53,725 nucleotides of DNA from Bacilli bacterium (lineage in GTDB: Bacteria; Bacillota_I; Bacilli_A; RF39; UBA660). Shown here piece after piece: positions 4,474 through 49,223 of this stretch. Position numbers and translations under genes: made by a program. The notes beneath the pieces were generated by a model. That model was not told where the DNA came from. It saw nothing but the letters and a program-made list of their open reading frames with translations, and searched no databases. Numbering within the stretch: the first letter of the stretch is position 1; every line of letters starts with the position of its first letter. The DNA lies in contig JAGALD010000018.1 of the NCBI GenBank assembly GCA_017625395.1, positions 1 through 53,725 of the forward strand, read 5' to 3'.

Positions 4474-5850
4474 ATGTTAGAATACAAGAGTAAGTATTTT
4501 ACTAAATCTTTAAGTGTATTTGGAGAACCGAAACTTTCAATAATAAATAAAATTAAGCAATATACTAATATTGATGAGAATAGTAGAATATTAATTCCTA
4601 ACTGCCAAGATGGTATATATGTATTACCATTTGCAAAAATAAGTAACAATATTGTTTGTTATGAATCAAATAAAAATTTACTAAATGGTGGAGTAATTGA
4701 TAACTTTGGTTCATTAGGTTTAGTAAAAAGATTAAAAGGTGCTAATTTAGATAAAAATGTAAAAATAAAAAAATATAATTTTTATGATGAGAAAAAAATA
4801 GCAAAATATGATTTAGTAGTAGCTATAAGAACAATTCAATTAAGAGAAAATGACAAATATTCCATTGAAAATAAATTAAATAAATTAATGTCTAGTGTTA
4901 AAGATAATGGATATTTATATCTAACATATTATATAGATGAAGATATAGAAGTTAGTGAAAATCAAATTATAAGATATAATGAAATTAAAAATAATATAGA
5001 TTTATCTAAATGGAATATTTTATATTATAGAGATAATTTTCAAAGATATACTGATCATAATTCTCATCCTAATCATATAGGAAATCATAAACATAAGATA
5101 GGTTCAATTTTATTAAAGAAAACACCTCATGTTTATAAAAAGAGAATACTTGATAGGAGATATAAATCAGCAAGTATTTATGGTGAATCAAATCAGCAAG
5201 TTTATGATTATATAAATTTATTAAAAAACGAATATGATAGAAATGTAGATGTTTTAGTAGTTGATGCTAATGATGGCAAAAATGCAATAACATTTGCAAG
5301 ATTTGGATTTAATGTTGTTTGCTATGAAGATAACAAAGTATTACTGAATGGGGGAATATATAATCATAAAAGAACGACAGGATTAAAAAAAAGAGTTTCC
5401 GATTTTTTAGTAAATGATAACATCATAATAAAAGAAAAGAATTTTTATGATATAAAAGAAATTAATAAGTTTGACTTTATATATGTTGATAGTTCATTAA
5501 ATTTAGAAAAGAATAATCACATAACACTAAAAAAGAAAGTTAGAAAATTAATGTCTAATGTAAGAGAAGGTGGCTATTTATACATCTATTATGATTTAGT
5601 ATTAAATGAGATTGATGATTATAATAATTCATATTTTCATATTGGAGAAATGCAAAAAATATTTGATTTAGAAGATTGGAAAATTGAATATATATGTGAA
5701 AGAGAAGAAAAAAATTATTGTAATTATATTTATGATAAAGATAGAAGAATAGGTTATATTTTAGCAAAGAAAAAAAGAAATAGAAGAAAACATAAATGTC
5801 ATTATACAATAGAAATTAACAATAAAATAGAATATCAAAAGGCATCGTAA
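4474..5850 (+). CDS. Protein with two tandem class I SAM-methyltransferase-like (TehB-like) domains
   Basis: Two homologous halves (VCYESNKNLLNGG / VCYEDNKVLLNGG; KLMSSVKDNGYLY / KLMSNVREGGYLY); motif I degenerate in both. Confidence 0.6.
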   Translation: MLEYKSKYFTKSLSVFGEPKLSIINKIKQYTNIDENSRILIPNCQDGIYVLPFAKISNNIVCYESNKNLLNGGVIDNFGSLGLVKRLKGANLDKNVKIKKYNFYDEKKIAKYDLVVAIRTIQLRENDKYSIENKLNKLMSSVKDNGYLYLTYYIDEDIEVSENQIIRYNEIKNNIDLSKWNILYYRDNFQRYTDHNSHPNHIGNHKHKIGSILLKKTPHVYKKRILDRRYKSASIYGESNQQVYDYINLLKNEYDRNVDVLVVDANDGKNAITFARFGFNVVCYEDNKVLLNGGIYNHKRTTGLKKRVSDFLVNDNIIIKEKNFYDIKEINKFDFIYVDSSLNLEKNNHITLKKKVRKLMSNVREGGYLYIYYDLVLNEIDDYNNSYFHIGEMQKIFDLEDWKIEYICEREEKNYCNYIYDKDRRIGYILAKKKRNRRKHKCHYTIEINNKIEYQKAS

Positions 5851-5862
5851 GATGCTTTTTTT
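5837..5862 (+). terminator. Intrinsic terminator abutting the RBS of the initiator gene
   Basis: aaaaggcatc-gtaa-gatgcttttttt, then GGAGG at 5863. Confidence 0.7.
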
Positions 5863-5874
5863 GGAGGTGGTAGA

Positions 5875-6633
5875 ATGTCGGTTTTTAAAATTGAAAAAAC
5901 AAAAGATTTTACAGTTATGAGCAATTATCATTTAAGAGATAAAAATTTAAGTTTAAAAGCAAAAGGATTATTGTCATTTATGTTAAGTTTACCTGAAGAC
6001 TGGGATTATTCATTAATGGGTTTGTGTGCTATTTGTAAAGAAAGTAGAGATGCAATAAGGTCAACTTTAAAAGAACTTCAAAAATATGGTTATCTTCAAA
6101 TAGAGAAAGTTCGTGGAGATAAAGGTTATTTTGAATACAATTATTTGATATATGAAAAACCACATTCAATAGAAAAAGAAATAAATAATCCAGATATGGA
6201 AAATCCACACCTGGATAATCCAAGTTTGGAAGAACACCCACAAATAAATACTAATAAACAAAATACTAATAACAAAATTGATAAAGATGATAAAACCATA
6301 TCATCTTTTTTTCTTGCAGAAGAACATAATATTTTAACATTGGAATTAATTGATAGGGGATATATAAATGAGAATGATACTCAAATCTTTTATTATGATG
6401 ATTTATTTAAAAAGTTATTAGAAGAAGATAATTCATATAAAGATTTATTGCAAATTATACACTATATAATTCCAAGAGTAAAAGCAAGAGATTTTAAAGA
6501 TGAAGATGGTAATCCTATTCAAAATAAATTTGGTTATTTTAAAAATGCCATTATATCAAATATTCAGAGACTTGATATTGATATTGGAGAATTATGGGAT
6601 AATGAAGGAATATTTGATGATTTAGAAAGATAA
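5875..6633 (+). CDS. Phage/ICE-type HTH replication initiator
   Basis: FTVMSNYHLRDKNLSLKAKGLLS.MLSLPEDW N-terminus; NPxxE linker repeats; ends DDLER. Confidence 0.7.
   Translation: MSVFKIEKTKDFTVMSNYHLRDKNLSLKAKGLLSFMLSLPEDWDYSLMGLCAICKESRDAIRSTLKELQKYGYLQIEKVRGDKGYFEYNYLIYEKPHSIEKEINNPDMENPHLDNPSLEEHPQINTNKQNTNNKIDKDDKTISSFFLAEEHNILTLELIDRGYINENDTQIFYYDDLFKKLLEEDNSYKDLLQIIHYIIPRVKARDFKDEDGNPIQNKFGYFKNAIISNIQRLDIDIGELWDNEGIFDDLER
6187..6231. repeat. Three 15-bp iteron-like repeats AATCCA-N4-TGGAW inside the initiator gene
   Basis: aatccagatatggaa / aatccacacctggat / aatccaagtttggaa, followed by an A-rich tract. Confidence 0.6.
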
Positions 6634-6660
6634 AAAACATTAGCTTGTTTGCTAATGTTT
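6634..6660. terminator. Hairpin between convergent genes, probably bidirectional terminator
   Basis: aaacattagc-ttgttt-gctaatgttt. Confidence 0.7.
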
Positions 6661-6720
6661 ACTACTATATCAAGAAAGTAGGGTACTGCTAATTTTACTA
6701 CTAATACTACTTAAATACTA

Positions 6721-7221
6721 CTAATTTTTTTTAGGATTAGTTAGACAATAATAAGTTGTTGCGTGTCTTAATATTATCCATGTAATTACTTGATCCATAT
6801 TTTTAGGACTTATTAAAGAACTAATACAATAATCCTTTAAAAAGTTTAATTGTATTGGTAATTGAATACTTCTTTCGTTTGCACCGATTACTTTTTGAAC
6901 TAAATCATCAGCAACCAAGTCTCCTTCAGAAACAATACAATCATCTTGTTCATCATCTTCAAAATCTGCAAAGAAGTCAGTTATATCATCAACTTCTCTT
7001 GCAATTTCTTTGAATTTTTCGTTTGTATAAATTGGTTTTAATAATTCAAGATATTTATTAAGCAAATTTTCTAATACAATATCTTTTTCATTGTCAGGTA
7101 ATCCTTTTAAGTCTTTTATAAGACCATTTAATTCATAATGGTATTCTATACCTCTAATTTTTTTTATTTTGTTTTCCATGTTTTCATGGATAGATACTAC
7201 ATAGTCATTAATATTTTTCAT
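6721..7221 (-). CDS. Hypothetical acidic protein
   Basis: 166-aa ORF with AAGGAG RBS on the minus strand; the only convincing minus-strand gene. Confidence 0.7.
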   Translation of the reverse strand: MKNINDYVVSIHENMENKIKKIRGIEYHYELNGLIKDLKGLPDNEKDIVLENLLNKYLELLKPIYTNEKFKEIAREVDDITDFFADFEDDEQDDCIVSEGDLVADDLVQKVIGANERSIQLPIQLNFLKDYCISSLISPKNMDQVITWIILRHATTYYCLTNPKKN

Positions 7222-7386
7222 TTTTAGCTCCTTTTCTTTTCTTAAAATAAAACCTACTTTCTAGCACTACCATTCGTCAATTATTTTCCTTATTACACAA
7301 TATAATGTAGATAACTTACTACATAGTTGGTATGGTTTAAAATTATTAAACTTATTACAATAGTAGTAAGTTATAGGAAGGATGTG

Positions 7387-47800: not shown

Positions 47801-48164
47801 AATAAGTGGTTTCGATATTATTGGTACTAGAGAAGAATTGAGATATACTCCTGTTGTTTGGATAAAAGGTTCAGGAAAATATAAAGTTGAAATAAATAAC
47901 ATTGATGAAATAGGTAATATTATTAAATTAGAAAATATGTTAAAAAGTTTCGAAAATAAAATAAACACTGTAACCGACCAAATTGCATATACAAAAAAAC
48001 AACTTGATGATACAAAAGAAGAACTTGATAAACCTTTCACTAGTGCAGATAGAATTAAAGAATTACAAAAAGAAAAAGCAAGAATTGATAGTGAATTGGA
48101 TTTGGATAAACAAGAATTAAATGTCGATATGGAAGAAGATAAAGGTCAAGAATTATCACAATAA
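41844..48164 (+). CDS. DarB-like N6-adenine MTase / SNF2 helicase with ArdC-like N-terminus
   Basis: [53 protein letters not shown] start with GGAGG. Confidence 0.88.
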
Positions 48165-48358
48165 AATAAATTTAATTTTTTTCATAAAACTACTTGCAAA
48201 AATTCCTTTTTTAAGTGATAAATGGAACGAAGGGAAAACGCTATTAAATATGTCTAATTTGAATAATATACACTTTAAAGACGGCTTTCAATCATATACT
48301 TGTATAAAAAAATTAAATTGTTCAAATGGGCTTAAAATAGCAAAGGAAGGAGTATGAT

Positions 48359-48583
48359 ATGAAAGAGTTGAACATCAATAAAGATTTTATGTTATGGTTT
48401 TTAGAAATTGTCGAAAACATAATAGTAGATAGCATTGAAGATAATCCGACAAAATTTCCTACATTCCTTGCTGTAAATGAATTGATAAACAAACTAAATT
48501 TAGAAGAAGGAGTTAACATTTCTAATGTAATAGGAGAATTAACAACTAATAAAATTTTTGAAGAAGTAAAAAATAATATATAA
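48359..48583 (+). CDS. Hypothetical protein
   Basis: 74 aa; AAGGAG RBS. Confidence 0.6.
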   Translation: MKELNINKDFMLWFLEIVENIIVDSIEDNPTKFPTFLAVNELINKLNLEEGVNISNVIGELTTNKIFEEVKNNI

Positions 48584-48599
48584 GAGGGAGAGATGAAAG

Positions 48600-49130
48600 A
48601 TGTATATTACAGATAGTACTGAAAATGTTAGAGAATTAATTGAAAAGTTAGAAGAAATTAAAGACATAAGTAAAATGAGATTCTTACTATATATATTTAA
48701 TTCTTTAAATAATAATTTGATTAACAATAAAAATGAAGTTAATCCTAACTTGGTGGAAGATCCTGATTTAGTTATATTTAATTTTCCATCAATTGGTTTT
48801 GCAGATAACTATATTACTATTTTCTTACAATATAATGTTATGGTATATAATGTATTCTGCAAACAAAACAAAATAGTAAGTGAACTAGACGCTTATGAAG
48901 ATGAAGGCAATGTATATGGAGTAGAATATGATGAGGAAGATAAAGAATTAATAACTTTATTTGAAAAATTATCTTTTAAAGAAAAATTAGATATATTTGG
49001 AGAGATAGTTATAAGGTATGATAATGAAACATACTTTAAGGAAAGAATAACAATGCTTACATTTGATTCTGATAGAAGTGGTTATGACATAGCAAAATTA
49101 ATAAAGGATTTTAAAAACAATAATAAATAA
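48600..49130 (+). CDS. Hypothetical acidic protein
   Basis: 176 aa; GGGAG RBS; followed by a terminator. Confidence 0.7.
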   Translation: MYITDSTENVRELIEKLEEIKDISKMRFLLYIFNSLNNNLINNKNEVNPNLVEDPDLVIFNFPSIGFADNYITIFLQYNVMVYNVFCKQNKIVSELDAYEDEGNVYGVEYDEEDKELITLFEKLSFKEKLDIFGEIVIRYDNETYFKERITMLTFDSDRSGYDIAKLIKDFKNNNK

Positions 49131-49142
49131 AAATAAAACAAG

Positions 49143-49174
49143 AAAGCTCAATGCAAAATGTGTTGAGTTTTTTT
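49143..49174 (+). terminator. Intrinsic terminator
   Basis: aaagctcaatgc-aaaat-gtgttgagttttttt. Confidence 0.7.
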
Positions 49175-49223
49175 GTTGCATAAATTTATATAATTCTTAA
49201 TAAGTTTTAGAGGAGGCAGATAC

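Follow-up and report, generated by a model that had tools for sequence, protein, structure and literature searches.

Control of conjugation by terminators, attenuators and antitermination has been worked out only recently and in two model systems, pLS20 and Tn916. As described for the plasmid pLS20, a terminator lying 0-26 bp before the Shine-Dalgarno (SD) sequence of the first operon gene acts as an attenuator (PMC13401043), the gene order is attenuator, conAn1 and conAn2 (PMC13401043, PMC8191782), the conAn2 RNA region of 260-600 bp lies directly downstream of conAn1 (PMC8191782), and more than 20 predicted terminators are read through over 32 kb of the operon (PMC10325885). The account of Tn916 in PMC11658703 places the insulating terminator T1 over the start of orf24 and describes it as overridden by canT, a cis RNA downstream of Porf7. 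A third group, the Ltr superfamily of phage late-operon activators, contains RinA, LtrC and ArpU (PMC3753634, PMC3152322); the binding sites of Ltr proteins reported in PMC3753634 are 7-nt direct repeats just past the regulator gene, on the far side of a terminator, and the Ltr protein is the sole phage protein required for late-operon expression. The present analysis concerns contig JAGALD010000018.1 of a Bacilli bacterium (53,725 nt, the entire contig of 53.7 kb, 24.8% G+C; hereafter the window), most of which is filled by an integrative conjugative element of about 46.9 kb with an ArpU-family regulator and with terminators placed directly before ribosome-binding sites (RBSs). The host assembly is 1.49 Mb and 93.5% complete.

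The explanation preferred here, tentatively and with somewhat less than even confidence, is that an attenuator with a leader open reading frame (ORF) controls the ArpU-family regulator and that the terminators further downstream are leaky or are overridden by some factor. Transcription would start at the promoter at 12871 and enter a structured leader of about 300 nt, in which a 43-codon ORF has its stop inside a strong terminator abutting the RBS of the ArpU gene. Passage of RNA polymerase through the terminator at 13142, most likely set by translation of the leader ORF, would decide whether ArpU is produced. Judged by its family, ArpU would be a sigma-region-4-like, Ltr-type DNA-binding activator that probably turns on the downstream transfer genes. 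The short terminators of the transfer module would leak, holding down spurious transcription and setting the ratios of expression, much as seems to happen in host operons, and the cargo genes and the recombinase would run from their own promoters.

The leader ahead of the ArpU gene carries this explanation, and the attenuator in it, held at the same tentative level as the explanation to which it belongs, would be the best-supported switch of the element. The leader RNA is more structured than its shuffles (z = -5.5; 0 of 100 shuffles fold as well). The T-run of its terminator (13142-13186) abuts AGGAGG, which is the position of a pLS20-type cATT and is kept in 25 of 31 loci. In 25 of 28 family loci a strong terminator ends 20-81 nt upstream of the estimated ArpU start, and a terminator lies 18-35 nt upstream in 25 of the 31 unique ArpU-type genes linked to the RNA box described below; the base of the stem often reads AGAGAG/CUCUCU. 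Of the 25 terminator-bearing ArpU loci, 21 have an SD-led leader ORF (27-53 codons) with its stop codon within the hairpin or close to it, compared with means of 0.4 loci for ORFs of at least 25 codons and 1.0 locus for ORFs of at least 15 codons (maximum 4 of 25) in 300 shuffles of the upstream sequence. Because the leader peptides are not conserved among loci while the arrangement is, translation itself, not the peptide product, would seem to be the functional part.

Ribosome-dependent leader-peptide attenuators are known, for example the tet(M) leader of Tn916. The locus shares with them a short SD-led ORF leading into an intrinsic terminator that immediately precedes the regulated gene, here with the peptide not conserved and the arrangement kept, and differs from them in that no alternative antiterminator helix was identified.

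The regulator, a protein of 146 residues, is by its match to TIGR01637 a true member of the ArpU/Ltr family (51.5 bits against a cut-off of 43.1; E 1.2e-13; residues 10-142). A first-pass annotation, made from the letters of the window alone, had called the protein ArpU-like and named it a candidate antitermination factor; the family assignment held, and the second part was not supported, as no antitermination factor was identified and the family consists of late-promoter activators. The AlphaFold2 model of the protein has a predicted local distance difference test (pLDDT) score of 82.8, and its residues 65-145 align to region 4 chains of extracytoplasmic function (ECF) sigma factors with Z 7.2-7.5, sigma factors making up nearly all of the top 25 rows; Foldseek with the model gave no match at E <= 0.001. 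A sigma-region-4-like fold is predicted with moderate confidence for the C-terminal half. By analogy with the family, ArpU probably activates or boosts the transfer genes that follow its own gene. The protein had no tblastn match at E <= 1e-3 in 50,697 phage or 72,556 plasmid records. Two more ArpU-like genes are present in the same genome (C98:14018-14443 and C43:9177-9655), and behind the one on C43 lie a terminator and a box copy of its own, which suggests at least one more related mobile element.

Comparison with relatives showed that the layout is conserved where the sequences are not. ArpU relatives 62-90% identical were found in metagenome protein sets (P0003-P0013) and relatives 25-39% identical in 32 of 401 genomes of the same bacterial family. 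Twelve of 20 larger regions were syntenic conjugative elements with genes for HTH_26, ArpU, a membrane protein, adhesin, sortase, pilin, VirB6, VirB4 and M23. A hairpin, T-run and RBS precede the ArpU gene in all 12 and the adhesin gene in all 11 that have one, and a hairpin and T-run lie 9-34 nt before the HTH_26 start in 5 of the 5 relatives with an HTH_26 homologue. The gate stems are unrelated in sequence between these relatives (25-57% protein identity). The pilin gate is absent from all 4 relatives with a pilin homologue, which have no intergenic region there, and the 22-bp hairpin at 19820 is lineage-specific.

One close copy, L011, is 96.5% identical; it keeps the 19820 hairpin with one mismatch and one wobble, and carries a ParB-like gene upstream instead, with a different hairpin, T-run and RBS before the HTH_36 gene. 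Its 6 differences across the six hairpin regions compared, and 0 in the box, are uninformative for covariation. No close relatives for covariation were found in metagenome and viral protein-based scans, and L073 was too diverged to align in the leader. Two copies were filed under other hosts: L011, with 14 kb of the element, under a Clostridia metagenome-assembled genome (MAG), and L012 (2096 bases, 99.9% identical to window positions 12796-14891) under a Rickettsiales-titled MAG; either the element is shared between hosts or the contigs were mis-binned.

The first-pass annotation had listed seven places where a hairpin and T-run precede the next RBS, and all seven, here called gates, were present on direct reading and in an energy-based scan. 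That scan took ViennaRNA hairpins closing 0-1 nt before a T-run and counted intergenic hits at a free energy (dG) <= -5; besides the seven gates it recovered nine further co-directional intergenic terminators in the element. A simple consensus terminator scan found only 2 of the 7 gates on the + strand (19821 and 14488); its sites numbered 13 versus 3.2 expected at 1-20 kb, 6 versus 1.9 at 20-40 kb and 0 versus 1.8 at 40-53.7 kb. Intergenic hits of the energy-based scan were 19 on the + strand versus 7 on the - strand, and 4 of these 7 are + strand hairpins read in reverse. T-runs meet the next SD directly or within about 10 nt, the site at 49144 being the exception (about 35 nt). On this sequence evidence the sites are real, directional intrinsic terminators. 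Three of the seven gates (5841, 31873 and 41795) lie outside the transfer module.

The layout was also compared with the rest of the host genome, with crude whole-genome gene calls and with terminator stems ending <=36 nt before the next co-directional start. RBS-near terminators occurred in 6 of 20 intergenic regions of the element versus 54 of 625 elsewhere (odds ratio 4.5, Fisher p = 0.007). A terminator-like hairpin is present in 310 of the 625 co-directional intergenic regions of the host, and host terminators begin near the stop codon (median 2 nt; <=10 nt in 234 of 314). The RBS-abutting layout, enriched in the element and yet also in keeping with the usual style of the host, alone makes no call for antitermination. 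No homologue of Rho (TIGR00767) was found in the 93.5%-complete genome. A general scheme of ribosome-gated terminators, drawn from the overlap of stop codons and hairpins, was weakened, the overlap being the host norm.

A conserved RNA box directly follows the ArpU gene, whose stop codon forms the first 3 nt of the box in the window. Among 48 unique box cores the outer stem pair is U-A in 35, U.G in 9, C-G in 4 and C.A in 0, and one loop base, within UAG, covaries with the base after CU (U-A 46, A-U 2, mismatch 0), which fits an H-type pseudoknot RNA. The box occurs in one copy per locus in 26 of the 61 loci compared and as a single copy in the window; it was counted twice in the host genome and found in 2 of 401 genomes sampled from the class, and its full form was present in 42 of 80 loci of a metagenome scan. 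Beyond the window, box loci include L004, L007, L014, L016, L023 and many metagenome loci within L063-L178. Of the 195 nt of non-coding sequence after the ArpU gene, only about 30 nt is conserved; conAn2 sequences are themselves poorly conserved. The box must be transcribed together with ArpU, as only -2 to 12 nt separate it from the stop codon of the gene in 11 of 23 loci; a terminator ends <=16 nt before the box in 6 of the 23.

The box is followed by an SD and often by a tiny ORF ending in KIP and a stop; SD-led ORFs of 8-13 codons ending Lys-Ile-Pro-stop follow it in at least 9 other ArpU contexts (KIP-stop loci L023, L080, L103, L123, L136, L141, L150, L152, L159 and L176). In other taxa the box also follows RelA/SpoT homologues, where another conserved mini-ORF (...KFNxKYDMLCTA/S) trails it. 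These mini-ORFs may encode arrest or leader peptides. What comes directly after the box in several relatives is instead a DNA methylase gene.

Searches for a known counterpart of the box were negative. Rfam at gathering score gave no match in the window and only tRNA in 20 box-bearing loci; around the box (13560-13760) at E <= 10 it gave chance-level matches only, RF00522 (PreQ1) not among them. The literal box string retrieved, among the literature matches listed, unrelated primers only. The preQ1-I aptamer is an H-type pseudoknot of the same outline. The box resembles it in a short P1 helix, UAG/CUA loop pairing, an A-rich linker and a near-identical A-rich tail, and differs in matching no Rfam PreQ1 model, in its loop without the conserved cytosine and in gene contexts unrelated to queuosine. 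Two other roles were considered and rejected: a sigma-A promoter, since the spacing to the CTAA element varies by 5 nt, the SD follows immediately in several loci and the pairs covary as RNA, and an ArpU-specific element, since the box also follows RelA/SpoT homologues. The box may be an uncharacterised cis-regulatory RNA.

Promoter positions bear on how far a transcript would reach. The first-pass annotation was right that cargo genes have their own TGnTATAAT, perfect sites being confirmed at 31084, 36886, 37802 and 39841; the gene upstream of the 31873 terminator has promoter 31084, and cargo promoters 31084 and 39841 lie ahead of the gates at 31873 and 41795. It had also been proposed that one switchable transcript, starting near 12.9 kb, reads through to the excision factor and integrase. 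The recombinase promoter at 49402 and the cargo promoters argue otherwise: because the recombinase has its own promoter and the cargo consists of terminator-promoter units, a single transcript of this reach is neither needed nor likely. Within the transfer module a sigma-A-like promoter was found in 0 of 11 elements within 122 nt before the adhesin start, versus 15% of random windows. With no promoter in any of these elements and the T-run abutting the RBS, transcription must cross the adhesin terminator. The adhesin-gate hairpins of these elements are short (dG -5.4 to -11.3 kcal/mol) and may simply leak. No promoter was found after the 19820 hairpin, ahead of the type IV secretion system (T4SS) genes.

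A dedicated processive antiterminator in the transfer module is possible. Processive antitermination confined to that module (about 13.2-31 kb), acting through ArpU, the box RNA or both, has a distinctly lower probability than the leader-ORF attenuator and is the next explanation to consider; modified polymerases would ignore the terminators at 14488, 17288, 19820 and 25586, and the system would be an analogue of conAn/canT made from other parts. The order of leader attenuator, regulator and cis RNA parallels the attenuator-conAn1-conAn2 order given for pLS20 (PMC13401043, PMC8191782), the adhesin-gate terminator is conserved without a promoter, a very strong hairpin at 19820 precedes essential T4SS genes with no promoter seen, and the box is RNA-like, co-transcribed with ArpU and single in each element. 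The same box measures about 30 nt, compared with 260-600 bp for conAn2 (PMC8191782), and stands after RelA/SpoT genes too, with no evident terminator array. Neither a PF17362 domain nor a NusG paralog was found, only four terminators lie in the 18 kb, PMC3753634 describes relatives of ArpU as activators of promoters, and stems longer than 14 bp are reported in PMC10325885 to resist conAn-type antitermination, so that the 19820 hairpin would block it. A narrower proposal, in which ArpU and the box RNA together make up a new processive antitermination module of two parts, a counterpart of ConAn1/conAn2 switched on by the leader-ORF attenuator, is unlikely; if it were true, some Ltr late activators of phages and conjugative elements would have elongating polymerase as their target and not, or not only, promoters. 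A single switchable read-through transcript coupling transfer and excision is less likely still. It would agree with the co-orientation of all genes, with RBS-abutting terminators along the whole element and with the crossing of more than 20 terminators over 32 kb reported for pLS20 (PMC10325885), and would have to cross at least 12 terminators, pass a region at 31-41 kb built of terminator-promoter units with perfect TGnTATAAT sites and end at a recombinase with its own perfect extended -10 promoter, where local read-through would suffice for the 31873 and 41795 gates downstream of cargo promoters.

Each gated gene might instead have an unrecognised promoter of its own at or just upstream of the hairpin, read for example by ArpU, with the terminators ending the preceding unit. 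The sigma-region-4-like fold of ArpU, the terminator-then-promoter layout of the cargo units and the weak sites offered by AT-rich DNA (such as TTTAGA-17-GATAAT over the 41795 hairpin) speak for this; it is nevertheless improbable, as a motif common to the gates was not found, the window contains the box pattern just once, the pre-adhesin regions have a sigma-A-like site in 0 of 11, the T-run leads straight into the RBS with no room downstream of the hairpin, and the hairpin sequences differ among relatives. That the hairpins are incidental or non-terminating, a punctuation of a compact genome with no regulatory meaning, would suit the finding that half of the co-directional intergenic regions of the host have them, 54 abutting the next start, and that several hairpins of the element are weak and A/U-rich. 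It is at odds with positions conserved among relatives of divergent sequence, a leader-ORF association far above shuffles, the strand bias of 19 to 7 and a layout enriched over the genome background, and is the least probable of the explanations.

Several points weigh against the leader-ORF attenuator explanation itself. The minimum free energy (MFE) and centroid folds of the leader keep the terminator and show no clear antiterminator alternative or zipper-type extension. Because host terminators normally start at the stop codon, a stop codon in a hairpin is no sign of ribosome control per se, and the presence of the leader ORF is the only special feature at the ArpU gate. Many of the loci compared are close relatives, so that the counts suggest more independence than there is. 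No ArpU target site was identified in the element, and the box behaves, by its covarying pairs, as an RNA and not as a DNA operator for ArpU. The 22-bp stem at 19820 should be a very efficient stop that leakiness alone is hard to square with; it favours some antitermination and is the strongest argument for real antitermination in the element. Termination efficiency, read-through and start sites, and the mechanism beyond sequence geometry and conservation, are all predictions from the sequence.

The genes identified by Pfam and NCBIfam annotation of window proteins are, all on the + strand, an HTH_36 protein, DNA methylase, Res helicase, HTH_26 regulator and ArpU-family protein; a thioester/SpaA adhesin, sortase-like protein, single-stranded-DNA-binding protein (SSB), T4SS pilin, VirB6-like protein, VirB4 and M23 peptidase; a MobA/VirD2 relaxase and VirD4 coupling protein; a cargo block of peptidases, helix-turn-helix (HTH) regulators, an acyltransferase, a VanY-type carboxypeptidase and a Y-family polymerase; and a 2106-aa SNF2 helicase and a large serine recombinase. 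The earlier statement that the genes at 7.4-51 kb are co-oriented was confirmed. The serine recombinase put the element into a gene of the FtsW/RodA/SpoVE family (3264-4304), in which a foreign 13-residue tail replaces the normal C-terminus after ...PVTGIT; the lost C-terminus is readable right after the recombinase gene, in a 3' remnant within 51046-51210. Because this split gene flanks it, the element is taken to span about 4.27-51.12 kb, with the first gate (5841) inside it.

Some further observations concern single parts of the element. The N6/N4 DNA methylase and Res-type helicase genes (8154-12151) lie between the replication and regulation modules. An identical 17-nt core is common to the stems at 31873 and 37772 (31879-31895 and 37775-37791), and copies with 95% identity over 21-23 nt lie on contigs C44 and C21 of the genome; these seem to represent a small terminator cassette that recurs. 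The 19820 hairpin, searched as a repeat element, has no second copy in the genome. A hairpin cluster at 25586-25740, of which one member (25636-25687) reaches -16.8 kcal/mol, falls in the 276 nt that separate the M23 peptidase gene from the relaxase accessory genes and is a candidate origin of transfer. The features are listed in Table 1.

Table 1. Terminators, promoters, RNA features, genes and junctions of the element, by position in the window
Feature	Position	Strand	Details
attL, approximate left junction	4262..4280	+	within FtsW/RodA/SpoVE-family gene
Terminator before HTH_36 gene	5841..5863 (stem 5841-5856)	+	dG -7.3 kcal/mol; T7, GGAGGTG immediately after; stop codon of the preceding gene in the loop
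HTH_36 gene	5875-6633	+	behind terminator 5841..5863
Terminator after restriction (Res) gene	12157..12190	+	consensus and energy-based scans
TGTTATACT promoter-like site	12204	+	TTGAAA -35; upstream of HTH_26 leader hairpin
TGTTATAAT promoter-like site	12379..12387	+	just before 12395 hairpin
Strong hairpin and T-run in HTH_26 gene leader	12395..12452	+	-18.4 kcal/mol
HTH_26 (Cro/C1-type) regulator gene	12511..12828	+	domain annotation
ArpU leader promoter	12871..12888	+	two overlapping perfect extended -10 sites, TGCTATAAT and TGATATAAT
Structured leader RNA	12886..13199	+	MFE -72 kcal/mol
Leader ORF, 43 codons, with SD	13032..13163	+	stop codon in terminator loop
Main gate terminator before ArpU gene	13142..13186 (stem 13142-13176)	+	-15.4 kcal/mol; T-run, AGGAGG immediately after
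ArpU-family (Ltr-type) regulator gene, 146 aa	13200..13640	+	
RNA box	13638..13667	+	P1 UGAG/CUCA, 11-nt loop UUUAUAGNGAN, A-run, CUA pairing loop UAG
SD-led tiny ORF	13682..13708	+	MHKKQKIP
TTGACA -35-like hexamer and three GATTA-type 7-nt direct repeats	13732..13792 (repeats 13755-13785)	+	by eye, before next gene
Membrane protein gene, 217 aa	13836..14489	+	
Adhesin gate terminator	14488..14511 (stem 14488-14503)	+	-5.7 kcal/mol; 6-bp stem, T8, GAGAGAAGGTG immediately after
SpaA/thioester-domain adhesin gene	14527..17283	+	
Terminator after adhesin gene	17288..17325	+	energy-based scan
Terminator before T4SS pilin gene	19820..19876 (stem 19820-19866)	+	-27.3 kcal/mol; 22-bp stem; RBS about 4 nt past T-run
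T4SS pilin gene	start 19894	+	
Terminator after M23 peptidase gene	25586..25617	+	consensus and energy-based scans; homologous hairpin in relative L056
A/U-rich terminator before M73-peptidase-like gene (bsaA of the first-pass annotation)	31873..31907 (stem 31873-31900)	+	-9.0 kcal/mol; RBS about 10 nt on
Cargo unit: terminator, then directly TGGTATAAT	36854..36894	+	same design at 37772-37810 and 39810-39849
Terminator before 2106-aa SNF2 helicase gene	41795..41821 (stem 41795-41816)	+	-7.0 kcal/mol; RBS about 8 nt on
Terminator before 53-codon ORF	49144..49176 (stem 49144-49170)	+	-10.8 kcal/mol; RBS about 35 nt on
53-codon ORF, candidate excision factor	49224-49385	+	
TGTTATAAT recombinase promoter	49402..49410	+	perfect TGnTATAAT, 63 nt before recombinase gene
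Serine recombinase gene	49465-51045	+	
attR, approximate right junction	51110..51130	+	then 3' remnant of FtsW-family gene

The element and at least 12 relatives in small-genome gut bacteria appear to use the design of the model systems with other parts, an ArpU-type regulator standing for ConAn1 together with a leader ORF and an RNA box, which supports terminator-punctuated transfer operons as a general solution in Gram-positive mobile elements. Easily cloned pieces of about 1 kb would hold what is probably a translation-sensing switch of horizontal transfer, as well as an uncharacterised RNA motif with further copies near RelA/SpoT genes.

Components of the known antitermination systems were searched for by family models. 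The first-pass annotation had seen no NusG/LoaP paralog, which agrees with a single NusG (PF02357) in the genome, on contig C36, and with no NusG/KOW match among window proteins. It had also suggested a hidden Markov model search against ConAn1, and this came out negative: PF17362 had no match among window proteins at E <= 0.01, among the ArpU-like and small proteins at E <= 10 or in the whole genome at E <= 1. Its central proposal, a processive antitermination system, gained no factor, since none was identified in the window.

The closest likeness is to pLS20. Both have co-oriented conjugation genes with intrinsic terminators, a terminator directly before the SD of a first small regulatory gene within a leader of several hundred nt, and a conserved cis element after that gene. 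The parts differ: the first gene here is of the ArpU family and there is no PF17362/ConAn1 protein, the leader here carries an ORF and its fold has no evident zipper-type stem extension, the regulator gene is followed by a pseudoknot-like box of some 30 nt as against the 260-600 bp of conAn2, and the carrier is an integrated serine-recombinase element and not a plasmid. With Tn916 the locus shares its nature as a Gram-positive integrative conjugative element, terminators at gene starts and an HTH regulatory module upstream of the transfer genes; in Tn916 promoter and canT reach the transfer genes only after circularisation, whereas the regulator and transfer genes are collinear here while integrated. 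The Ltr superfamily is matched by the ArpU model above its cut-off, by a regulator gene directly upstream of structural 'late' genes and, in 6 of 23 relatives, by a terminator between the regulator gene and what follows. It differs in what lies downstream, conjugation genes here as opposed to terminase and virion genes, and in the upstream leader-ORF terminator, which did not come up in those parts of the literature on Ltr proteins that were drawn on. By analogy, control of the element would belong with the terminator-attenuator-antiterminator design of pLS20 and Tn916, as a relative in layout and not as a conAn member.

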